Below are positions 28,346 to 39,582 of a stretch of DNA of 51,587 nucleotides, piece by piece. Every line of letters starts with the position of its first letter. Position 1 is the stretch's first letter. The position numbers and the translations under genes were made by a program. Source of the DNA: a bacterium (GTDB lineage: Bacteria > UBA10199 > 2-02-FULL-44-16 > DYJF01); the NCBI GenBank assembly GCA_041739675.1, contig JBGSNL010000075.1:1-51587 (forward strand), written 5' to 3'. Under the pieces are notes generated by a model. It worked only from the letters and a program-made list of their open reading frames with translations. It was not told the origin of the DNA and ran no database searches.

Positions 28346-31300
28346 TTAATGGACAGCAAGGACCGATGGTCTGACGGGGGCGGCGATGGGGGTTCGCACT
28401 TGGACGGGCTGACGTTGTTGCGTTGCTATGCGCTGTTGCTGATGCACGCGGGCGGCGCTGCGTTGCGTTTGGCGGGCGGTTGCTTCGATTCCATAGTCGC
28501 TGTAGCCGATATATTGCCCGCCGCTGGTTTCACCGGTGTCGGCAAGACCGCTGACTGACGGCGGTTCGCTTGATGACGCCTCGGGAGAACCGTCTGCCGG
28601 CGCGGCCGGTGCCGGCGGCGCTTGAGGAGCAGGCGTAGGTGTCGCGGCCGGGGTTGCAGCGGGGCCGGCGCCCGATGGATTTTCAGCACGTCTGGTGAGC
28701 AGGAGTTTCAGGAAGTCTTCGGCGGGCATGAATGTCGGATTGGGATACACCGCTTTGAGAAATCTCCACAGCTTTTCGAGCTCAAGCGGGCCGGAGCGCA
28801 AAAGTTTTGAGACAATTAGCTGCTGCTCCTCATAAAATTCATTGTCGTGTGTCCATTCATTGGGCTGTTCCGACAAATCATGAGTCATTTCGTGCGTCAC
28901 CTTGTCGATCAGCTCCGCCATGAGAGCTTGCATTCTGCCGGCGGGATAATCCTCTACCGACAAGATCTCAAAAAGTTCGCGCGCATATTTTTCCGCGGCG
29001 GTAATCGAAAAATACATCTCAATGCGTCCTGCAAACGTCGCGTGATCGGCCAGCGCATTTCTCTCAAGGAAGCTGGAGAACCCTATCGTATGATGACTAT
29101 TCCCCGCGGATGTCATTAGTTCGCCCACGATGGAAAGGAACGCGTCGTAGGAATTGGCATCCTCGCTTCGCGCATCTAACCTCTCCCAGTGTCTGTGAAG
29201 CGCGTCCTCTCTCCAATCTCCAAGTGTCAGCTCTCTGCCCCGCCCCGAGACGCCCAGTTCCTGTCCGACGCGGTCCATCATCTCTTTGCCCGAACCCCGA
29301 GCTTCTTTCGAACTCATGGCCCTCTCAAGGCGTGAGGTGATGGCGGTTGGCAGCTTTGACGTATCGATCCTAGCGCCCTTTTCAAAACGCTCCAGCAGTT
29401 CGTAGATCGAAATTATCTCTCCATCAATTCGGAGACACGGAAGAAGCGTTAAAAGCTGAATGAAATAGCGTTCATCCTGATAGCGGCCGATCTCGGGAAG
29501 GCCCTCTCCTCTCATCAGGCGTTCCGCATCCTCCCTGATTTCGGGCGCTATGGTTTTCTCGTTCGCAAAACCGTACATCGAGTTGAAATAGACGTCGGGG
29601 ATGCCGGTGATGTCAACTTCGCCGCCGGCAAAACGGATGAGATAGCTCCGCAACAGCATGGCGTTGACTTGCGGCATCAATCGCCATTCCAGATTCACGG
29701 GATCCAGAAATTCATTTCCGGAGCGGACGATGGGTATGGGTCGCGGGAGATCGATCACAATTCCGCGGGGAGCGATAAGTCGCCTAATCGCAGGCGGGAG
29801 ATTGTTGAAAAAAGCGCGCGGGATATCCTTCACATACAACCCGCCGCGCGTGATCGCGTTCTCGGTTGCCTCATATATGCGGACTCCTCCGATTCCGGTG
29901 ACATCCTGATCAGCGACAGGTTGCATCGAAAGGTTCACCTGCCTGCCGTTGTATGTCACGCCTATTTCCGAGAGAAAGCGCCCGTATGAAAGAGTCGAAC
30001 TCCTGTCGAATGCGGCGTCGAGCTCCGGAATTTCGCCGTTCGATGTGCGCTCAATAATTGTTCCCTTGAAATCCTCTCTTTTAACGACATAGGAGATCGT
30101 GACATCCACGACCCTTTCGCCGTCATATATGGGGCGCAGAGTGAAGATCGAGACTCTTCCGTCTCCCGTTCCAGTCTTGATTCTGATTTCCTTTGCACCC
30201 GGATAAATTGTGAAGAAGCCGACGCCGAACTTGTCCGTCGTGCTCTCTCCATAGACGAATAATTTATTGATGGCATCGCTAAAACTCATTCCGACAGGAT
30301 CCGTTATGCGAAGGACGTGCGTACCGTCTTCCCGGAAGCTTTCTACGTTTATGGTTCCTTTTTCCTCTTCATTCTTACGTATTGCATCGAGACTGTTTTG
30401 GATGAGAGCCCTCAGATATAGAAGATTGATTCCGTCGCTTAAATTGTACATCGCGTGCTGGACGCGGCGGGCGGAAATTTGCCGGTCCGTCCCGCTCGTC
30501 TGTTCGCGAATTTCGCGTGCGGCACGGCGGTTGCTCCCCTGAAATTTCTCCCACCAATCATTGTTCGACGTGACGGCGATGTTTAGATCGACGAGCGAGA
30601 ACGCCTTGCTTCCCGAGACGACAGGAATTTGAGACGCCCCCTCGGGAAGAAGCTCGGCCGTGTCCATTGCGAGATAGTACGCATAGGCGCGATGCCTCGG
30701 GGACAGGACCGCGGCTTTGCTCCAATCGCCGTGCGTCAAGGCAAAACGGGCCGCGAACGACTCAGCAAGCGCATCCCGGAACTTCAAAATGTCACTTACG
30801 GAAAGATGTTCCGCAAGGGTTTCAAGTTTCGAGATGGCATCTCGAGGAGGCGCATCACCCCATCCGACGGATAGAGCGATGTCGCTGAACGCGCCCAATA
30901 TCTCGGGCGTGTATTTCTCGGACAGAGGCGTGAGAATTCTCAAGAGGTTTTGGGCATATCTCATGTCCATCTTTGTGTGTGGGAGAATGGCGAGGGCGAA
31001 ATTGAACAGCTCTTCGGGGAAGGAAAGAAGGGAAAGAGCTATTCCTTGCAAGCCGGCGTCAAAATTCGCTTCAACAAGATGTTTCAGATTTGCGCGTATT
31101 GCCGGAGATGCAAGTGAACTCACATCGAGCGACGTCATGACGCGTCTGTTCGCAAAGTCCCGAAATGCATACACTTTATTTTCGCCGTTTGATTCGAGCC
31201 CCACTGCCGGGTCTTCCTGCCCATCGAGCATCCGAATATATCCCAGCGAAGGGAGGGAGTGCCATAGGCCGCTGTTGCCCTCCACCATGAAGAGTCGACT

Positions 31301-34300
31301 TGCACGGAGAAAGGAATCCGTTTTGGAATTGCCGGGCTCCAAATAATGTGCCTGCCTCCTTATTATGCCTTCTCCTGTATCCTCGAAGACCTGTAATGTG
31401 CCGTCCAACCTTTCCGCCGCGAGTAAATGTCTGCCGCCGTTGGCCGTTCTGGCGTCGTCTTCCTGCGCCCTAACCCATTTGAATCGCTCTTCAACATGAG
31501 GCGTGCCGTCCGATCTCAAAAGGCGCCATGCCTCATCCGATTTTTTGACTACGATATATTCATTATTCTTGCCCCAAAAAAAGACGTCTCTAAATTCTTC
31601 TTCGATGGCTGGTTTGAAATCACGAGTCCTCAGGATGCGATATGGTTTTCCTTCGTGGGCCACTGCGACAAGCTCATTGAACTTCCCGCCGACATGAAAC
31701 CTGTAACCGAATGCTCCTTCAAAAATTAATGCTCCGACAGATGTGTACACTTCCCATTTTTGTGAATTGATATGTATAGAAGACGCATATTTAACCGCGA
31801 GAAACTCGCGATCCTCCAGTAGTTCGAAATCTTCAATGGGAGATTTGGGATAGATCGAAACTTTAAAAATGTTTTTGGCGATGATCTCCGCGTCATGCAG
31901 TTCGTATACTACTACGGAACCGTTGGGCCAAATACCTGCAATGTACTCTCTGTCGTTTCCGAACGTAATCACTCTTTCGAATCTCTCTTCGAGGACGACG
32001 GTCTTGTCCGATGTCCTTATTATCTGCCAGTTTCCATCTGTTCTTCTGGAGACGATGAACTGATTGTTTTCGCCCGCGACCTGCGCATATTCGGACTCAC
32101 CATCTATTGCAGGAGTTCCGTCCGGTTTCAAAAGCAACCAGAGGCCGTTTTCCCTTTTAAGAGAGAGCAGACCTCCTCTTTCATGCTTTGCGTAAGAAAA
32201 GAGTTCATCAGAGAGCGGTGTGCCATCGGGTTTGACAAGCCGATGATATGTTTCTTCGTCCGGTCCCCCCCCCTCCTCAACCACAATGAATCGAGGACGA
32301 GAAGCGAAATTGGGCATGGTCTGAAGCAGATCTACGAAGAGAGGTTTGCCGTCCGAGCGCACCACAGCATGGGCGCCATAATTTCCAAGCTCGTCAGGCA
32401 CCATTCTGTCGACAAACAGGGAGAATAACACAGGTTCACCGGGTCCCACTGCGTTTGATGCAAAGGAACGAAGTGCCTCCAAACCTAAGTGCCTTATGAA
32501 TGTGGTATCCAATTTCGCGAGTAGATCCAATGCCGCGCGATCAGTATTTTCTAAATCCCTCAGGGCACCGAGTTGCGTCATCAATACTGGATTTCGTTCT
32601 ATGATTCCCTCAATGACGGGGCTCAGCGCCGGCCGCCGGTAGTCGATCACTTCCGCTCTCAGTGGGCTTGCGGTTCCAATCGGCAATGCAACTTGAACTT
32701 GCGCAGGTAGGGGTGGTTGTGCGGCATCTTCGGTCTGCGAAACCGTTGCAGTTCCCCATGAACCCTGCGCCTTTGCGAGGTCGAGCAAAACCTTCAGCCC
32801 CACCGGATCGTTCTTGTGCATCTCGTAGAGGGGGCGGCTAAGAAGAACGATGTTGCGTTCGCGATCATACATTATTCCGGTTGCCGCAACTGGAATAAAA
32901 TCGGTCAGCAATATTTTTGTGCTCCCGCGCCATTCAGGCGGTTCGTCGAAGCGTGCCTGCCAGTCGCGCCCCAGATACAATTCGTTCACTCGAATGAAAC
33001 CTTTTTGGGCCATGATATTGTAGAGAGGATCGTCGGGGATCAGGGTTTTTCCACGGAAATGCTTCGTGGCGACAGATCTTGCGTATTCCGCCAGATCATT
33101 GGCCCTCTCCGGACTCTCGTTTCTCTTTTGCAGCTGAGTGATCATCGGTGCAATGGCATTGAGATATGCGATCTTGTTTGTATAGCCTTCAATACCTTCC
33201 ACCGCATCGATGAACGCCCTCACCTGATTCACGACGCCTGAATCCACTCGCAAGCGGTTTCTGCTCTCGGGAAATTCTATGTCGAACGGAAAATCGAAAA
33301 CCACGAGCTCGGGCACCACGTCTCCGCTGACGGCAAACTCCTCGATCATTCCGCCACCCATTGTAACGACGACCTTGCCGAGCGTGCTTTTCTTCTCAGA
33401 GACATACATTGTTCCGTTCCCGACCCTGCTTACGCGCGCGGGGTCGAGGTCGTTTATCTGCCGGCCGTTCGCCATTATCCTCCGGCCCGTCACATAGCGC
33501 ATGCTTGTAAGAAGCTCCTGAGTTATCCTGTCCGGATCCAGTCCGGCATCTCTGACAAGGACCGTCGTTCCGACGTCCATCCTGGTCGAGGCCTCTACTC
33601 TCACACCCATCTGGCCGTTCAAGCGTATGAATTCTATTCGCACCGCCTGATGGCCGTCACGCTTGGTCTCGACTATCACGCGCGAGTTATGATCCTTGAG
33701 ATGCGCAAGTGCCGTATAAAATCCGATTCCGAATCTGCCTATTGTGTTCACGCCGCTCTTTCCCGAAAGCTGCGGGATCAGGAGTTTTTCAAAGACTTCA
33801 TCGGCGCTCATGCCCACGCCGCTGTCGGAAACCGCGTATCGGCCATTTTCGATTGCAATATTGACGTCGCCCTCCATCCCCCTCATTGCGTCCACAGCGT
33901 TGCTCGTAATTTCTGTGATCGATCTGTAGGGATTTGGATTCTGATGGCCGATGTCGTTTTCCAGGTGCGCAGCTGCAACATGATAGCGATTCATCAAAAG
34001 ATCGTAGATCATGTCGCTTTCAAAGCCGTTGGTGACGATCTCATCGTACTGTGCGCGAATTTGTCTCAGGTTGTGCGTTTTTACGGTCTCGAAGAATGAG
34101 ACGATATCGGAAAGAGCAATCCATCCTTCATGGCCGATGTCGTGATCTTCCGCAGGCTTTGATTCCAGGCCGAACCAGCGCCTGACCATTGCCAATAGTC
34201 CGCCGGCTCCGTTCCCGTTCGACGGCCCGGGAGGTGCGTGGCTTTCGCGCACGAACTCGTCCACCTGCGTGCGTGGAGTTTCGGGAGAACCGGGCGTTCC

Positions 34301-34384
34301 TCTTTGCTCTGCCCCGTCCGCCGCATGCGACGCATCAATAGGCCCGGCAAAATTGCCGTCTGTGGATCTCGGTCCTGCTACCAT
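28346..34384 (-). CDS. Giant (2012 aa) protein: GHKL ATPase - beta-repeat region - degenerate second GHKL - HExxH metallopeptidase motif - conserved low-complexity C-terminal tail
   Basis: EITSNAVDA, DSGVGMS, IGRFGIGF, GTTV; second copy LRALIQNSLDA, TDPVGMS, KFGVGF, GTII; THEMTHD...THDNEFY. Purine-rich RBS before ATG 34384; no signal peptide. Confidence 0.85.
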   Translation of the reverse strand: MVAGPRSTDGNFAGPIDASHAADGAEQRGTPGSPETPRTQVDEFVRESHAPPGPSNGNGAGGLLAMVRRWFGLESKPAEDHDIGHEGWIALSDIVSFFETVKTHNLRQIRAQYDEIVTNGFESDMIYDLLMNRYHVAAAHLENDIGHQNPNPYRSITEITSNAVDAMRGMEGDVNIAIENGRYAVSDSGVGMSADEVFEKLLIPQLSGKSGVNTIGRFGIGFYTALAHLKDHNSRVIVETKRDGHQAVRIEFIRLNGQMGVRVEASTRMDVGTTVLVRDAGLDPDRITQELLTSMRYVTGRRIMANGRQINDLDPARVSRVGNGTMYVSEKKSTLGKVVVTMGGGMIEEFAVSGDVVPELVVFDFPFDIEFPESRNRLRVDSGVVNQVRAFIDAVEGIEGYTNKIAYLNAIAPMITQLQKRNESPERANDLAEYARSVATKHFRGKTLIPDDPLYNIMAQKGFIRVNELYLGRDWQARFDEPPEWRGSTKILLTDFIPVAATGIMYDRERNIVLLSRPLYEMHKNDPVGLKVLLDLAKAQGSWGTATVSQTEDAAQPPLPAQVQVALPIGTASPLRAEVIDYRRPALSPVIEGIIERNPVLMTQLGALRDLENTDRAALDLLAKLDTTFIRHLGLEALRSFASNAVGPGEPVLFSLFVDRMVPDELGNYGAHAVVRSDGKPLFVDLLQTMPNFASRPRFIVVEEGGGPDEETYHRLVKPDGTPLSDELFSYAKHERGGLLSLKRENGLWLLLKPDGTPAIDGESEYAQVAGENNQFIVSRRTDGNWQIIRTSDKTVVLEERFERVITFGNDREYIAGIWPNGSVVVYELHDAEIIAKNIFKVSIYPKSPIEDFELLEDREFLAVKYASSIHINSQKWEVYTSVGALIFEGAFGYRFHVGGKFNELVAVAHEGKPYRILRTRDFKPAIEEEFRDVFFWGKNNEYIVVKKSDEAWRLLRSDGTPHVEERFKWVRAQEDDARTANGGRHLLAAERLDGTLQVFEDTGEGIIRRQAHYLEPGNSKTDSFLRASRLFMVEGNSGLWHSLPSLGYIRMLDGQEDPAVGLESNGENKVYAFRDFANRRVMTSLDVSSLASPAIRANLKHLVEANFDAGLQGIALSLLSFPEELFNFALAILPHTKMDMRYAQNLLRILTPLSEKYTPEILGAFSDIALSVGWGDAPPRDAISKLETLAEHLSVSDILKFRDALAESFAARFALTHGDWSKAAVLSPRHRAYAYYLAMDTAELLPEGASQIPVVSGSKAFSLVDLNIAVTSNNDWWEKFQGSNRRAAREIREQTSGTDRQISARRVQHAMYNLSDGINLLYLRALIQNSLDAIRKNEEEKGTINVESFREDGTHVLRITDPVGMSFSDAINKLFVYGESTTDKFGVGFFTIYPGAKEIRIKTGTGDGRVSIFTLRPIYDGERVVDVTISYVVKREDFKGTIIERTSNGEIPELDAAFDRSSTLSYGRFLSEIGVTYNGRQVNLSMQPVADQDVTGIGGVRIYEATENAITRGGLYVKDIPRAFFNNLPPAIRRLIAPRGIVIDLPRPIPIVRSGNEFLDPVNLEWRLMPQVNAMLLRSYLIRFAGGEVDITGIPDVYFNSMYGFANEKTIAPEIREDAERLMRGEGLPEIGRYQDERYFIQLLTLLPCLRIDGEIISIYELLERFEKGARIDTSKLPTAITSRLERAMSSKEARGSGKEMMDRVGQELGVSGRGRELTLGDWREDALHRHWERLDARSEDANSYDAFLSIVGELMTSAGNSHHTIGFSSFLERNALADHATFAGRIEMYFSITAAEKYARELFEILSVEDYPAGRMQALMAELIDKVTHEMTHDLSEQPNEWTHDNEFYEEQQLIVSKLLRSGPLELEKLWRFLKAVYPNPTFMPAEDFLKLLLTRRAENPSGAGPAATPAATPTPAPQAPPAPAAPADGSPEASSSEPPSVSGLADTGETSGGQYIGYSDYGIEATARQTQRSAARVHQQQRIATQQRQPVQVRTPIAAPVRPSVLAVH
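31360..32371 (-). repeat. About seven ~37-aa WG-like beta repeats inside the giant GHKL protein
   Basis: HRLVKPDGTPLSDELF / WLLLKPDGTPAIDGES / WQIIRTSDKTVVLEERF / YRILRTRDFKPAIEEEF / WRLLRSDGTPHVEERF. Boundaries approximate. Confidence 0.7.
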
Positions 34385-34404
34385 CCCCACCCTTCCCCTT
34401 TCCT

Positions 34405-34433
34405 AGAGTGCGTAACAATTTGTTACGCACTCT
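34405..34433. promoter_or_regulatory. Perfect 29-bp palindrome in the 5' leader of the giant GHKL gene
   Basis: AGAGTGCGTAACAA-t-TTGTTACGCACTCT, lying between the sigma28-like -10 box and the RBS. Confidence 0.7.
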
Positions 34434-34439
34434 TGCCCT

Positions 34440-34508
34440 TTATCGGCGGCGGCACCCAAAAGTTGCGTGAAAAATGTGGGTAGAAATCATTGTATTACAG
34501 GATGTTAC
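34440..34508 (-). promoter_or_regulatory. Sigma28(FliA/WhiG)-like promoter plus conserved upstream element, copy 1
   Basis: Minus strand GCAACTTT(34466-59)-N11-GCCGATAA(34447-40); upstream GTAAC...TACCCAC..TTTTCAC is shared with copy 2. Confidence 0.7.
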
Positions 34509-34530
34509 GTCGAAGTGGGAACGAAACTCT

Positions 34531-37500
34531 TCAGGGTGCAACGACAACAGATGGTGCGCGTGGCGCGAGGACGGGGGTTCTCAATGCTGCTGCTTGAGCG
34601 GGTTGCCTGACTGTTCGTCGCTGGGCGTAGACACTTGTGGCGCTGCGATGGGCGCTTCTTGCCGCCGGCGGAACTGCGGAAGTGTGATAACCGGCATAAT
34701 ATTCGCCGCTCGTTTCGCCGGTGTCGGCAAGCCCTGTGACCGTTGGTGCATCGTTCGGAGCTGGGCTTGACGATTCATCCGCAGGCGCTGCGGGTGCCGG
34801 GGGTGTTGAAGGGGTCGATGGCGCTGCGGCGGGTGGAACGGAAGGAGTTCCGCCATTGCCGTTATTCTCCCCGTCGTCATCCTCATCAATAATATCTTCC
34901 AAAGTGAGGCCTTCCGTAGCGGCATCTTCGGACCCGTTCCATCCGAGCGCACTTGTGATCGAACGCTCGATGCTTCTCTCAAATTCTCTATGGCTCGGGA
35001 CCCCGTTCATCACGATTTCAAACTCCATCCTCCTTTTTGAGAGGACGGCATGCTCGATCTCCGCAACCGTTCCGACATCGAGAAATTGTCTCTCCTCTTT
35101 GCCCAACCGGTCCAAAAAGCTCTTCGGATATTGGCCGATCATGTCTACGAGCCGCACCTCTGCCTTCACGTAGGTCGGGTCAGCGCGATTGGCGCGGTGC
35201 TCCGATTGATACCGCCACACATAGGTTTGAGGTTGGCCTATATAGATGATGACGTCGTCAGCGGGAAGATTGATCCCCACTCCGCCGCTTCTGGGATTCC
35301 CTACAAGGAGCCCGTGGACCGGATCGTTGTTGAATTTGTGGCGCGCCTGCTCCTGCCCTTCAGCCTTTACTTTGCCGTCCAGCCTGACGGCTCCATACTT
35401 GTGGTAATATCTCTTCCAAAGCGAATCGACGATCCGCGTGTAATTTGCAAAGAAGATGACCTTCTTGCCTTGCGAAATATATTTTTCCAGCGTTTCATCC
35501 AGTTTCTGATAGAAAGAAACGTTGGCGGCCATGCCGAAATACTCTGGATCGATCATCGCCCGTTTCAGCCATCCTAATTTGCTCGCCGGATTAAGTTTTT
35601 CCAGATCGACTAAAGTCCGCTTCTCCCCGGGCATACCCCCGGCTTTCCGCACAGAAACGTTGTGCCTGGCCGCCCACAGATTGTAGTTTAACGCCCACGT
35701 TCGAAAATCATTTACCATTTGAGCCATCATCGCCGCGTGTTCCTCTGTCATCTCATAGGCCCCCTCTTCCTGATACGGCACATAGACCATCTTGGGAAGA
35801 CGGCCCCTCTGTGTCTCCGGAGGCTGCGAAGGATCGACTATGCCCAACACCTGCCCCTTTGGGCGGCGAAGCATGTACTGATTTAGCAGTGCATTGAGCG
35901 TCTTGAGCGTATTTGCATCCCTCGCCCGGGCCATCTTGTAAAACTCCTCTAACGTCACCGGTTTATCTCCGGGCTTGAAACCCTTGGGCGACACCGGGCT
36001 CTTTACGTCCTTGCGTTTGACGCTGACAAAGATGTTTGGCGCAATGTAGCTAAGTGCAACAAAGAGATTCTCTATCTTGCTCTGATAGGGAGAGGCCGAG
36101 ACTATCCATCTCCGCTCGGCATCAAGCTGTCTGACCGCCTCTGCCTGCTGGTTTTCCTCTTTTGGGTTATCGACATTCTGAAACTCGTCGACGACTATGG
36201 TGTCAAGTCCGGCCTCCTTTTTAAGATACTGGAGCAGCGGATTGGTCCCCTCCTTCCCTTTCGCCTCCCGCAGAGCTTCATAATTGACGATAATGTATCT
36301 CGCAGAGGCAAGGATTCCAAAAAAATTGCTGTTCGCTTCACGATGGGCAAACTTCTTCTTACTAGGAGATTTCAGTACGATGTAGCCGGGCACCTCTTCA
36401 AGATGCTTTTCTATCTCCTCCTTCCACGTGCTGACCACGCGCGGATGGGTGACGATGAGAACACGTTTCGCATGAACGCTTTCAGCCGCGGCCAGAATCT
36501 CCACCGTTTTTCCCATGCCCGGTTCGTCTGCCAGCAGTGCGCCATTCCGTTCCCGTAAAAATTTCACGGCCTCAAGCTGGTACGGTCGCAGTATGGACTT
36601 TATGTTTTTGAGTTTGATTTTTTGGATCTTCTTGAAGTGGGATATCGCATAGCGATAGAACATCGCCCGCACGGGATCTTTATTCTCGGCCAGAAGACGT
36701 TCGAGTTTGGGCAATATGGCCGCCGGCGTCGTTGAGTATTCCTGATAAAGAAGATTTATATAGATATCGGCCAGACGGACGATCTGTTCTCCGGAAACAC
36801 TGACGTCCGGCTTGAATGCCTCAATAAATATTTCCGGCGGACGTTTTCCGGGTGCGTGCCCCACTTCTCCGAGGTTCAACGCAGCGTAAGCCGCCAGGAT
36901 ATCCCCTGGCGACGCCCTCTTGCTGTCGGGAAGAAGCGTGTGGACAAGCATAAGAATGTCGGCCGGTGATCTCACGATTTCTATTCCGGGAAGCTCCCCT
37001 ATCCTGCTCAAATCCGGCGGCGTGAGACCGAGGTGTTTTTCTTTTATTATATTTAATATGCCCGTGAAACCGATAACTTTTAGTGCTTCATCCGCTGTCA
37101 AATCTGGACGTTCCAACTTGGCAACAGCATAGTAAATGTCGAGGCCGGTTATTCGTGAACCGTCAGGCAAAATGTAATCATTCCTATAAACACTTGAAGT
37201 TGTCGGAACATTATGGGGATCACTACCGAAATATTTGTCATATACGTATTGCAATACCCTGCGCAAGGACGACTCGTCATTTCTCAGTCTCATGAAAGCC
37301 TTTTCATAGAGTTTTTTCAGCACATCTTCATCCGTTTCGGACGTCCATGAGAACTTCTCCCTTCCCAAACTGGTCAATTCTGTTCCCGAAATTGAAAACC
37401 CATTTCTAAATGAAAACACTTTCGATTTAAAAGTGTCATCCGGAACCCAATCCGATGCAGCTTTCAAAATGAAGTTGACGATATATCTCATTGCCCGAAC

Positions 37501-39348
37501 CAATCCCTCGGGTGTTTCACTCCATCTGAAAAGATGTTTTTCCCGCAAAATATCCATTGCTTCGTTCCAGCCCATCTCAGTACGCATGGCCGTGGCGGTC
37601 TTGTGTCTTTCCGGAAATGCCGACGCAAGCACCGTCATCAAAATGTCGTAGCCTTTGACCGTGCTCCCATCGGGTAAGGTGAAATATCTATCTTTGAAAT
37701 CGGTGACAAACGGTAATTGGTTCACATCTTCTTCGAAGTATTTTGCCACAATGTGTCGCATCACTCTGTCGATCGACATTTCATCGCTTCTCAGAAACGT
37801 AAAAGCATCTTCGTACAATCTTTTAAGAACATCTTTGTCGACCGCGTCGGGTGAGGAATACATTTGCCTTGCGAGTTCCAGAATACGTTCGCCTGTAAGC
37901 TGTTTTCCATCGGGAAATAAAAAACGCTCTGATTCGAAGGAGTCATCAAACAAGCGGTTTTGATCACCCTTGAATATATATTCTACAATGTGCCGCACGG
38001 CCCTTATCAATCCATCGGACGTTTCGCTTAATCTAAAGAGATATTTTTCGCGTATAATACGCAAAATTCCTTCACCGCCGATCTTCTTAAGTGCATCATC
38101 CCTTGAAAGTTCGAGACGCTCGGCGCGAGCGACTGCAAGCATTATATTCGAACCTTTTACAGATGTTCCATCCTGTAATTTCAATTTCTTGTTCCAAAAG
38201 CGACTCACTGAGAAAAGAACCTTCGTATCATCGAGTTGGTGACTGTCGAAGAGATAGCTCAATATCTGATGCAGCCGGGCCTCGTCCGCTTCGAGACTTA
38301 CTCGCATCTTCGCTATGGGTCCTGCTTGGCCCCAGTATTTATTCTTTATGACCTGCATGAGTTCGTAACGACCCATCCGATCGTATGCGGTTCTGGGCGC
38401 CATTTCCGGGTGCTCAACGCCGGCGACCGCAGTCATGATTTCTTTCCCGCTGATTCGGCTGCCATCCGGCAAAACAAATTCTTGTGTTGTGCTAAATTTG
38501 CTCGGAGATGGTACCTTGGAGGGATCCCCATCATAATATCGGTCCAGAATATAGCGTAGTATCCGCCGCGTTGTTGATTCGTCATCTCTTCGAACTGTAA
38601 AGGCCATCTCATACAGTCTGCTCAGGACATCGCTGTCTGTTGCCGTCTCCCAAGAATAAAATCGCCTTCCCATATTCAGCACTTGAGCGCCGGTGAGAGC
38701 GATGCCATCCATGAATGAAAATATTTTCGAGTCGAAGCCATCGGCAAAAAAATCTTCGGTATTCCCATTAAAAATATATTCTACGATATATCTCACTGCG
38801 CGGACCAAGCCATCGGGTGTTTCGCTCCATTCGAACAGATATTTTTCGCGGATCAGACGTGATAAATCTTTCTCGCTCACGTACTTCCTTGCCTGAAATG
38901 CGCTCATGTCAGGATATTCAACATGCAGCAAGTCGGTCATCAGCTCATAGCCGGTCTTCAGAACCCCGGTGGGCAAGCGGTGTTGTAAATATCTGAAATC
39001 TGTGCCTGCACTAACTCGTGAGCGATCGTTTTTGAATTCTCTCTTCAGAATATAAACAAAAATATCTCGCAGCTCTGCGGCAGAGACGCTGGCCGAACTC
39101 ACGCTTCTTCGTTCCGGAGTGGAGGGTGTCCGTGCTGTAGTCCCGGGAACGTTGGTGAAAAGGTTGGCGATGATGCGGATATAACGACTGTAAAACTCAA
39201 AGTTTAAATAGGTGTCCTCGCTTGCGGCCGGCCGCTCTGTCGCTGTCTCCTCACCAGCCGGTGTGTCAGAGGGAATAGCTGCACCCTCCCCCGATGGCGC
39301 AAAGTTCGAGATGGCACCTCTTATAAGTTTGTCTCCGCCACTTTGCAT
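34531..39348 (-). CDS. Giant (1605 aa) protein: novel ~85-aa repeat array - SNF2-family ATPase/helicase - conserved low-complexity C-terminal tail
   Basis: LRPYQ, LLADEPGMGKT, VVDEFQN, SASPYQ, MLRR.K, KVIFF, RLDG, SGGVGINL, QSEHRANR. GGAG RBS before ATG 39348; no signal peptide. Confidence 0.88.
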   Translation of the reverse strand: MQSGGDKLIRGAISNFAPSGEGAAIPSDTPAGEETATERPAASEDTYLNFEFYSRYIRIIANLFTNVPGTTARTPSTPERRSVSSASVSAAELRDIFVYILKREFKNDRSRVSAGTDFRYLQHRLPTGVLKTGYELMTDLLHVEYPDMSAFQARKYVSEKDLSRLIREKYLFEWSETPDGLVRAVRYIVEYIFNGNTEDFFADGFDSKIFSFMDGIALTGAQVLNMGRRFYSWETATDSDVLSRLYEMAFTVRRDDESTTRRILRYILDRYYDGDPSKVPSPSKFSTTQEFVLPDGSRISGKEIMTAVAGVEHPEMAPRTAYDRMGRYELMQVIKNKYWGQAGPIAKMRVSLEADEARLHQILSYLFDSHQLDDTKVLFSVSRFWNKKLKLQDGTSVKGSNIMLAVARAERLELSRDDALKKIGGEGILRIIREKYLFRLSETSDGLIRAVRHIVEYIFKGDQNRLFDDSFESERFLFPDGKQLTGERILELARQMYSSPDAVDKDVLKRLYEDAFTFLRSDEMSIDRVMRHIVAKYFEEDVNQLPFVTDFKDRYFTLPDGSTVKGYDILMTVLASAFPERHKTATAMRTEMGWNEAMDILREKHLFRWSETPEGLVRAMRYIVNFILKAASDWVPDDTFKSKVFSFRNGFSISGTELTSLGREKFSWTSETDEDVLKKLYEKAFMRLRNDESSLRRVLQYVYDKYFGSDPHNVPTTSSVYRNDYILPDGSRITGLDIYYAVAKLERPDLTADEALKVIGFTGILNIIKEKHLGLTPPDLSRIGELPGIEIVRSPADILMLVHTLLPDSKRASPGDILAAYAALNLGEVGHAPGKRPPEIFIEAFKPDVSVSGEQIVRLADIYINLLYQEYSTTPAAILPKLERLLAENKDPVRAMFYRYAISHFKKIQKIKLKNIKSILRPYQLEAVKFLRERNGALLADEPGMGKTVEILAAAESVHAKRVLIVTHPRVVSTWKEEIEKHLEEVPGYIVLKSPSKKKFAHREANSNFFGILASARYIIVNYEALREAKGKEGTNPLLQYLKKEAGLDTIVVDEFQNVDNPKEENQQAEAVRQLDAERRWIVSASPYQSKIENLFVALSYIAPNIFVSVKRKDVKSPVSPKGFKPGDKPVTLEEFYKMARARDANTLKTLNALLNQYMLRRPKGQVLGIVDPSQPPETQRGRLPKMVYVPYQEEGAYEMTEEHAAMMAQMVNDFRTWALNYNLWAARHNVSVRKAGGMPGEKRTLVDLEKLNPASKLGWLKRAMIDPEYFGMAANVSFYQKLDETLEKYISQGKKVIFFANYTRIVDSLWKRYYHKYGAVRLDGKVKAEGQEQARHKFNNDPVHGLLVGNPRSGGVGINLPADDVIIYIGQPQTYVWRYQSEHRANRADPTYVKAEVRLVDMIGQYPKSFLDRLGKEERQFLDVGTVAEIEHAVLSKRRMEFEIVMNGVPSHREFERSIERSITSALGWNGSEDAATEGLTLEDIIDEDDDGENNGNGGTPSVPPAAAPSTPSTPPAPAAPADESSSPAPNDAPTVTGLADTGETSGEYYAGYHTSAVPPAARSAHRSATSVYAQRRTVRQPAQAAALRTPVLAPRAPSVVVAP
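37027..39081 (-). repeat. Eight ~80-90-aa coding repeats of two subtypes in the SNF2 protein
   Basis: Type A: (W/L)SET.(D/E)GL.RA.R.IV..I...F..(D/N)G....G......D.DVL..LYE.AF (3 copies). Type B: DE...RR...Y....Y....LPDGS...G.(D/E)I......I.EK(Y/H)L (5 copies). Confidence 0.85.
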
Positions 39349-39380
39349 CGCTGCTCCGTTATCAATTCCCGATCGCGTAT

Positions 39381-39450
39381 TTATCGCCTGCTTGCAAAAA
39401 AAGTTGCGTGAAAAGAGTGGGGTAAATACCTCGATATAACAATGGGTTAC
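39381..39450 (-). promoter_or_regulatory. Sigma28(FliA/WhiG)-like promoter plus conserved upstream element, copy 2
   Basis: Minus strand GCAACTTT(39407-400)-N11-GGCGATAA(39388-81). The 16-mer AAAAGTTGCGTGAAAA is identical at 39399-414 and 34458-73. Confidence 0.7.
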
Positions 39451-39468
39451 TGAAGGACACCTCACTGT

Positions 39469-39553
39469 GAGGGGACACTTCCCATTTTCACATGGAGCCC
39501 GCGTGAACAGGGGAAGTGTCCCCTCGCGAGGCGTGAACAGGAGAAGTGTCCCC
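39469..39553. repeat. REP-like cluster (one inverted plus two direct copies of a GGGGACACTT/AAGTGTCCCC unit)
   Basis: GAGGGGACACTTCCC (39469-83) is inverted to GGGAAGTGTCCCCTC (39511-25). GCGTGAACAGG(G/A)GAAGTGTCCCC occurs at 39501-23 and 39531-53. Confidence 0.75.
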
Positions 39554-39582
39554 CTCTTTCAAGGACTACGAAGCAATCTACA

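Follow-up and report, generated by a model that had tools for sequence, protein, structure and literature searches.

A C-terminal tail family, a sigma28-type promoter and a non-flagellar type III secretion system in the genome of an uncultured bacterium

Two large genes with unrelated bodies and a common tail

We analysed a window of 51,587 nucleotides (NCBI GenBank assembly GCA_041739675.1, contig JBGSNL010000075.1, positions 1 to 51,587) from a bacterium of the GTDB lineage Bacteria; UBA10199; 2-02-FULL-44-16; DYJF01. The window is contig C30 of a genome, G000, which comprises 1.91 Mb in 88 contigs and is 94.6% complete. The subject of this study is a pair of adjacent minus-strand genes in the window, A (28346..34384, 2012 amino acids (aa)) and B (34531..39348, 1605 aa), together with the C-terminal tail and the upstream promoter that they have in common. 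The pair is spaced by 146 bp and flanked by a UPF0047/yjbQ gene and mazG, as described in the initial annotation. Comparisons were made with 93 genomes of the class, 22 of the order (including G000) and 4 of the window's family; G006 is a sister species in the same genus with a genome that is 83% complete. All genes, domains and promoters located in the window below lie on the minus strand.

The bodies of A and B are unrelated, the best BLASTP match between them having an E value of 2.3, and their C-terminal ends are homologous. The final 100 aa of the two proteins aligned with a score of 225, compared with 47 ± 7 (maximum 90) in 2000 shuffles. The homology that had been proposed for the last ~100 aa is thus supported, but the conserved tail proper covers only ~70 aa and is preceded by a Pro/Ala/Gly/Ser linker. 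In A, linker and tail occupy aa 1900-2012 (28349..28687), of which 28349-28564 encodes the tail proper; in B, the tail is 72 aa long (34534..34749). Ten residues of the tail core are identical in A and B, and the DNA encoding them differs at synonymous positions only. No Sec-like hydrophobic stretch was found in the N-terminus of A or B, which agrees with the initial annotation.

Protein A consists of a disordered leader, a first GHKL ATPase domain (aa 155-253, 33626..33922; HATPase_c E 3e-8, with sacsin and HSP90 models), short beta-type repeats at about aa 670-990, a second GHKL domain (about aa 1318-1410, 30155..30433) and a domain with an HExxH motif (aa 1831-1835, 28880..28894), followed by linker and tail. 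The second GHKL domain was assigned to HtpG/Hsp90 both by profile (E 3e-7) and by fold; it carries Ala at the position of the catalytic Glu, which is Glu in three aligned relatives. The HExxH motif, a predicted zinc-protease site, and the downstream His, Phe and Tyr were invariant in all five aligned orthologues. In a model of the last 722 aa, built from a 5-sequence alignment (mean predicted local distance difference test score (pLDDT) 59.5), the HExxH region was folded and aa 1900-2012 were coil with a pLDDT of 21-29, so that linker and tail are predicted to be disordered. A therefore looks like a chaperone-type (Hsp90-like) ATPase joined to a predicted zinc protease site, which would suggest protein substrates. 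The MORC-like, DNA-directed nature that had been proposed for A was not supported, since the best matches were to HtpG, Hsp90 and TRAP1 and were otherwise sacsin-like. A distant match of A was found in a Ca. Omnitrophica protein (25% identity over 14%), and a GHKL domain related to gene A sits inside a 17,560-aa open frame near 13247-13780 on contig C8 of genome G072.

Protein B starts with MQSGG in a disordered leader, which is followed by an array of ~170-aa repeats, three of them clear, that match no known family (37039..38853), SNF2-related and Helicase_C domains (aa 923-1389, 35182..36582; Pfam E 2.7e-24 and 6.6e-9, respectively), a linker and the tail. The repeat is present in more copies in the G006 orthologue. 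The domain matches in both proteins bear out the architectures of the initial annotation, namely a double GHKL with HExxH in A and repeats with SNF2 in B.

A protein-level tail on many, mostly unrelated bodies

A profile seeded by the tails of A and B alone and iterated to convergence on G000 retrieved a family of at least 41 proteins, counted as 41 complete open reading frames (ORFs) including A and B; one further tail ORF is truncated by the end of a contig, and a fragment of another lies at a contig start. The larger family that had been predicted is therefore present, and a local duplication of A and B is ruled out as its origin by the 41 members. The tail genes total 84.6 kb, or 4.4% of the G000 assembly, and frequently form tandem arrays. 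Their bodies fell into 31 BLAST groups among 42 members. Most members are 200-1100 aa long, so giant size, which the initial annotation took as a family trait, is not one.

The tail has a constant layout, a V-T-G-L..G-E motif followed by an Arg/Ala/Pro end nearly devoid of Lys, Asp and Glu. In 40 of the 41 members, 62-77 aa separate the V-T-G-L motif from the C-terminus. The final 45 aa of the family contain 310 Arg, 5 Lys and 10 Asp plus Glu in total, with a net charge of +4 to +12; Lys, Asp and Glu make up 0.3% each of the tail ends, compared with 7.5, 5.0 and 7.0% of other C-termini. These features stay constant at a mean tail identity of only 27%. At the motif positions every Gly and Val codon (four each) occurs, as do both families of Ser codons, and this synonymous variation rules out a DNA-level repeat. 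The tail is conserved as a protein.

Five paralogues on C36 and C37 have a common 30-70 aa leader, nearly identical tails and mostly different middles. Such near-identity, the tandem arrays and the lineage-specific tail versions described below suggest recombination, and a functionless tail could have passed from gene to gene by gene conversion or by recombination of 3' ends as cassettes. This explanation, already disfavoured, is very improbable because of the variety of synonymous codons at the motif positions and because motif, length and composition have been kept while the remaining sequence diverged.

The bodies provide few clues to function. Pfam scanning at E 0.01 assigned no family to 36 of the 40 members that lie outside the window. 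One member has a RelA/SpoT-type HD domain, and one weak B12-binding match and one weak UbiB-kinase match were obtained; by eye, several ends resemble degenerate histidine-kinase ATPase domains. The RelA/SpoT-type HD hydrolase domain, on the tail protein at C37:5671-8754, is 28% identical to the genome's own RelA/SpoT; the protein is a candidate (p)ppGpp-degrading effector. DNA or nucleoprotein targets had been suggested; the cargo taken as a class does not point that way, A resembling an Hsp90-type ATPase with a metalloprotease motif and 36 members lacking a Pfam family. For the tail itself, no known domain was found in scans of the members against Pfam, NCBIfam and PHROGs, among PDB sequences or in the Atlas. 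A RelE/ParE-type toxin-antitoxin-like gene pair, recognised by eye from the DNA, is located within the tail-gene array at C37:2215-2720. A tail-less 963-aa open frame at C65:28732-31623 combines repeated units with a C-terminal sigma-70-like domain, and its product is possibly a transcription-hijacking cargo.

N-termini were compared for the 37 members with an assignable start, picked by eye from ribosome sites. A Sec-like hydrophobic stretch occurred in 1 of the 37, compared with 29% of all G000 genes, which makes Sec-dependent export by the type II secretion system (T2SS) unlikely. The N-termini contain less Lys (1.5% vs 7.7%) and more Pro (8.8% vs 4.1%) and Ser (9.5% vs 5.9%). Composition and hydrophobicity together assign a disordered-type, Ser/Pro-rich N-terminus without Sec signal to 36 of the 37 proteins, composition alone being weak evidence. 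A start of the form M-x-[SAV]-[GA]-[GA] was present in 14 of the 37 members and in 11 of 1365 automatically called genes, the starts of which are often truncated. The tail ends are more uniform than the N-termini of the same proteins. Starts of the form M-x-S-G-G or M-x-x-x-G-E recur in promoter-led genes with and without a tail (C6, C8 and C34 of G000; G006; G007), and their G-E-[IVT]-S form resembles the core motif of the tail.

The tail does not reach far beyond G000. Its profile matched nothing in the other genomes of the order and, among 1.84 billion representative proteins, gave 33 matches, all of them G000's own. Reading of the promoter-led genes of G006 revealed a drifted version, V-x-G-L-L-P-S-G-E, which ends at least 21 G006 proteins, again with Lys, Asp and Glu excluded, among them the orthologue of B (50% identical). 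A joint profile of both versions found 41 genes in G000 and 21 in G006, that is, in 2 of the 93 class genomes; in the other 91 it gave nothing below E 0.006, and single matches at E 0.006-0.043 in eight of them are uninspected. Orthologues of A elsewhere (40-53% identity) all have a linker and finish in low-complexity sequence, but not of this type; three different types occur, two of them acidic. A homologue of B with 36% identity differs in its domains and is tail-less. When five acidic-type tails of G018 and G011 were made into a profile, it matched only its own inputs plus one sequence at E 0.18, so no corresponding family is demonstrated in those two genomes. The tail is thus a genus-level feature rather than a domain conserved throughout the system, and the regulon and the secretion machine described below are class-wide.

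The sigma28-type promoter and the type III secretion system

Genes A and B are each preceded by a sigma28-type promoter, at 34439..34480 within the 146-bp gap for A and at 39380..39421 for B. The GCAAC box is at 34466 for A and 39407 for B; the second box is GCCGATAA at 34447 for A and GGCGATAA at 39388 for B. About 42 bp are strongly alike, with identical GCAAC-N15-[CG]CGATA spacing. The ~70-bp common element of the initial annotation is only partly upheld: the box spacing is as described, but a weaker block extends the similarity to ~70 bp only if an 11-bp gap is allowed. A near-perfect palindrome at 34404-34428, between the promoter and the ribosome site of A and absent at B, is possibly an operator or an RNA hairpin. 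An imperfect tandem duplication of ~30 bp with an inverted partner is located at 39460-39560, upstream of the promoter of B.

The pattern derived from A and B occurs in G000 at 38 sites with the same spacing, at 10 with +1 and at 16 with +2 spacing, compared with 1-3 sites at each of ten other spacings, which indicates a -10 box, GCCGATAA, at a preferred spacing. The upstream box is GCAAC(TTTT) and not the TAAA/TTAAG-type -35 box of sigma28. A promoter matrix gave 85 matches of at least 20 bits in G000 and 2 in the reversed genome, and every one of the 93 class genomes had the exact pattern, at 6-86 sites compared with 0-10 for the control. The promoter is therefore a sigma28-type element of the whole genome and the whole class, which supports the initial annotation in this respect. 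Trained without the tail genes, the matrix still marked a promoter before 17 of the 39 tail genes that could be scored, compared with 46 of 1281 other genes (odds ratio 21, p 9e-14). The proposal of co-regulated, autonomous promoter-cargo-tail units accordingly holds for part of the family, and the promoter also serves 46 genes without a tail. A sigma70-type promoter, seen by eye on tail genes lacking a sigma28 site, was not enriched (3 of 11 compared with a 28% background at a score of at least 10).

The occurrence of the tail on genes with and without the promoter would be accounted for if the tail were a degradation or unfolding tag for an AAA+ or Tsp-type protease. Such a tag would limit the lifetime of harmful or stage-specific proteins in the cell that makes them, by whichever route they are exported. 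The disordered, non-polar or Arg-ended tails resemble C-terminal degrons in this respect. However, known degrons comprise ~10 aa at the very end, whereas the best-conserved motif of the tail lies ~70 aa inside, and the proteases are conserved while the tail is genus-specific. It is thus quite unlikely that the tail is a degron.

The initial annotation had suggested looking for a FliA/WhiG-type sigma factor and a secretion machine; both are present and physically linked in a T3SS (type III secretion system) operon. The sigma gene, the only one of FliA/WhiG type found in G000, is divided over two contig ends, one on C5 and the other on C87. FliA/WhiG were the best models for both halves (E 7.5e-24 and 7.5e-15), and we infer that the halves join into one gene. 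On one side of them is sctJ, and on the other a series of sctL, N, O, P, Q-type, fliO-like, sctR, S and T. The core set of G000 comprises SctJ, L, N, O, P, Q, R, S, T, U and V, with SctJ below its curated cut-off. Two genes of the operon bear the +2-spacing variant of the promoter, sctU begins 50 bp after the tail-gene array on C37, and sctV is on C31 among FHA proteins. Three genes of a four-helix-bundle family (23S_rRNA_IVP) interleave the FHA and sctV genes at C31:4077-7839.

SctV passed the cut-off of the SctV model (792; cut-off 692) and failed that of FlhA (692; cut-off 772). In a tree of 77 sequences, from which 4 of 80 fetched loci had been left out as partial, it grouped with the non-flagellar sequences in a clade with support 1.0. 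Its nearest neighbours were one deltaproteobacterial and two Archangium sequences, its exact position being unsupported. No dedicated T3SS secretin SctC was found, and the two secretins of G000 belong to the T2SS and type IV pilus operons. Judged by these sequence matches, the T3SS of G000 is non-flagellar, secretin-less and of the myxobacterial kind. It is also widespread: SctN is 83-92% identical in 20 of the 22 order genomes, and SctV orthologues of at least 70% identity (70-92%) occur in 89 of the 93 class genomes. Since promoter and T3SS are each near-universal, their joint occurrence in the class is uninformative. The class I CesT-like chaperone model matched in 0 of the 22 order genomes, but its control matched nowhere either.

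At C5:16273-17793, three small genes ahead of sctJ are ordered like sctE-sctF-sctG. The middle gene, present in 46 of the 93 class genomes, encodes a 174-aa protein with a highly conserved C-terminal helix and adjoins a TPR gene with weak SycD/SctY/CdsG matches. The protein matched nothing in Pfam, PDB sequences or Foldseek; its model is one long helix (mean pLDDT 56), and an Atlas cluster at 0.91 contains 11% T3SS_needle_F. As a lead, it may be a needle or pilus subunit, which would place a filament in a system thought to be needleless.

The regulon offers another explanation, in which the proteins stay inside the cell as proteins of a sigma28/WhiG-controlled stage. The tail would then direct their packing into a particle or condensate, as the cargo-loading peptides of encapsulins do. 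WhiG-type sigma factors drive development in other bacteria, the tail proteins lack signal peptides and membrane segments, and smc is in the regulon, as are genes for a DEAD-box helicase and a GGDEF-like protein. Orphan, fast-turnover bodies and degenerate enzyme domains in tandem arrays are, on the other hand, typical of conflict repertoires, which the tail set resembles, and the sigma gene is inside a T3SS operon. Retention in the cell is distinctly improbable.

Other export routes were also examined. Flagellin gave no match in G000 (controls were positive in 4 of 14; hook and rod genes lay outside the search). The T2SSE-family ATPases of G000 are GspE, PilB and PilT. The type VI secretion protein VipB was absent from G000, and the phage sheath was absent from G000 and its family and present in 4 of the 22 order genomes. 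G001 and G004 (loci L234-L273) contain large sets of promoter-led orphans with Pro/Ser/Ala-rich hydrophobic N-terminal leaders, and three genomes of their family have a sheath gene. A third, divergent secretin was found in 16 of 18 order genomes outside the window's family and in 0 of 4 inside. ORF reading places that of G011 in a Tad-type cluster (C2:684501-690500). The relatives outside the family thus have the T3SS paired with Tad, and the window's family lacks the Tad half.

Signals of the type IV secretion system (T4SS) include positively charged C-terminal tails and the XVIPCD of Xanthomonas antibacterial effectors in the accessible text of PMC8047123, and likewise provide a constant C-terminal address on variable cargo. 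The tail itself might be the export signal, read C-terminus first by this T3SS variant or an unrecognised transporter. The fixed position of the motif, the positive charge, the exclusion of Lys, Asp and Glu that recurs in G006 and the greater uniformity of the tail than of the N-termini (M-x-S-G-G-like start in 14 of 37) are consistent with this idea. However, a search with one family model for the VirD4-type coupling protein of the T4SS found none in G000 and one weak match in the 22 order genomes, and the tail differs from T4SS signals further in its predicted disorder and genus-specific sequence. The strong conservation of SctN and SctV in tail-less genomes is a poor fit to a fast-drifting signal that the core machine would read, and orthologues of A have acidic tails. 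That the tail is the export signal is unlikely.

A possible address on candidate effector proteins

The reading that we favour, with roughly even confidence, is that the tail proteins are probably effectors, with predicted export by the T3SS through their N-termini, that they are partly switched by the sigma factor, and that the tail is an address read by a co-drifting partner. The sigma28-type factor would read GCAAC-N15-CCGATA and switch on the machine and part of the cargo in one life stage, by analogy with FliA in the attack phase of Bdellovibrio. The disordered, Lys-poor and Ser/Pro/Gly-rich N-terminus would act as the type III export signal; such signals are described as serine- and coil-rich in the accessible text of PMC3617162, and the N-termini of the tail proteins agree with this. 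The unfolded tail would be bound through its V-T-G-L..G-E motif and Arg/hydrophobic end by a partner, which may be a chaperone, an outer-membrane hand-over factor or an uptake factor at the target. Tail and partner would drift together, giving each lineage its own version, and new effectors would arise by recombining promoter-leader and tail onto captured domains. The target would be another bacterium, because the recognisable cargo (RelA/SpoT-type HD, SNF2, Hsp90-like ATPase and the weak B12-binding and UbiB-kinase matches) is bacterial regulatory hardware. The loss of Tad from the window's family makes hand-over to another outer-membrane route a plausible task for the tail, which is weakened by the fact that the two family genomes without a detected tail also lack Tad.

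Several observations count against this reading. The absence of both a T3SS secretin and, family-wide, the Tad secretin leaves the outer-membrane step unexplained, and at 94.6% completeness of G000 a secretion system could be missed. The T3SS and the promoter are class-wide and the tail occurs in 2 of 93 genomes, so the machine does not require this tail. In two genomes of another family, a tail-like end was seen by eye in 1 of 46 complete promoter-led ORFs on 40 fetched stretches, many of these ORFs having Pro/Ser/Ala-rich hydrophobic leaders. No promoter match was found for 22 of the 39 scorable tail genes in the interval tested; some promoterless tail genes trail a promoter-bearing gene, but the arrays on C2, C14, C54, C71, C72 and C82 have none. 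Genes for lipoproteins and for Sec-exported proteins also follow the promoter, along with further orphans and housekeeping genes, smc among them. Finally, the accessible text of PMC8047123 and PMC3617162 describes type III signals as N-terminal and conserved C-terminal signals as a trait of T4SS and type I secretion, which makes the tail surprising.

The favoured arrangement of effectors, T3SS and sigma switch can be compared with systems in predatory bacteria. In Myxococcus xanthus, a needleless T3SS (T3SS*, mxan_2434-2464) and a Tad-like Kil pilus kill and lyse prey, as far as the accessible text of PMC12075869 shows. It likewise combines a non-flagellar export apparatus with a sorting platform and has no secretin of its own, in line with the position of the G000 SctV nearest Archangium. 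It works with a Tad pilus, whereas the window's family lacks the Tad secretin. The same text names no effector, whereas G000 presents a tagged candidate set of 41. In Bdellovibrio bacteriovorus, FliA is associated with TTAAG-N16-CCGATA at two thirds of attack-phase promoters (accessible text of PMC3627812), a sigma28 promoter that likewise ends in CCGATA and acts as a global stage switch over many non-flagellar or uncharacterised genes. The upstream box and spacing differ, being TTAAG and 16 bp in Bdellovibrio and GCAAC and 15 bp in G000. G000 differs further in that flagellin was not found and the sigma gene is in the T3SS operon, and no tail common to the Bdellovibrio proteins is reported in that text.

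The giant multidomain proteins of Omnitrophota (accessible part of 10.1101/2023.11.21.568195) are likewise large enzymatic mosaics in small-genome, probably host-dependent bacteria, but the G000 proteins are ten-fold shorter, lack membrane segments and are encoded by many separate tagged genes. The tail family can be said to work like a polymorphic effector arsenal, with its members being candidate type III effectors only. In terminal reassortment of type III effectors, a promoter and N-terminal leader are reused on new cargo; in G000 the reuse extends to both ends, of which the C-terminal one varies less. Neither tail nor regulon is described in the literature titles and abstracts searched (subscription journals and supplements lay outside their scope), and the tail family matches no family in the libraries or papers searched.

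A broader proposal, which we regard as doubtful, is that a class-wide secretin-less T3SS operates under a sigma28 switch and that individual lineages barcode their effectors with a private, co-drifting C-terminal address read by the export or delivery path. The cargo of T3SS* in predatory bacteria is an open question according to the accessible text of PMC12075869. The tail, together with the promoter for 17 of 39 genes, gives candidate substrates that can be listed and tested, and presents a candidate signal at the protein end where type III signals are not expected. If the barcode proposal is true, it would represent a new kind of type III substrate signal; dozens of unknown antibacterial effectors would be exposed in each genome, and the cargo that the myxobacterial system lacks so far could be named. 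A host-dependent or predatory life is also predicted for this class of uncultured, small-genome deltaproteobacteria.

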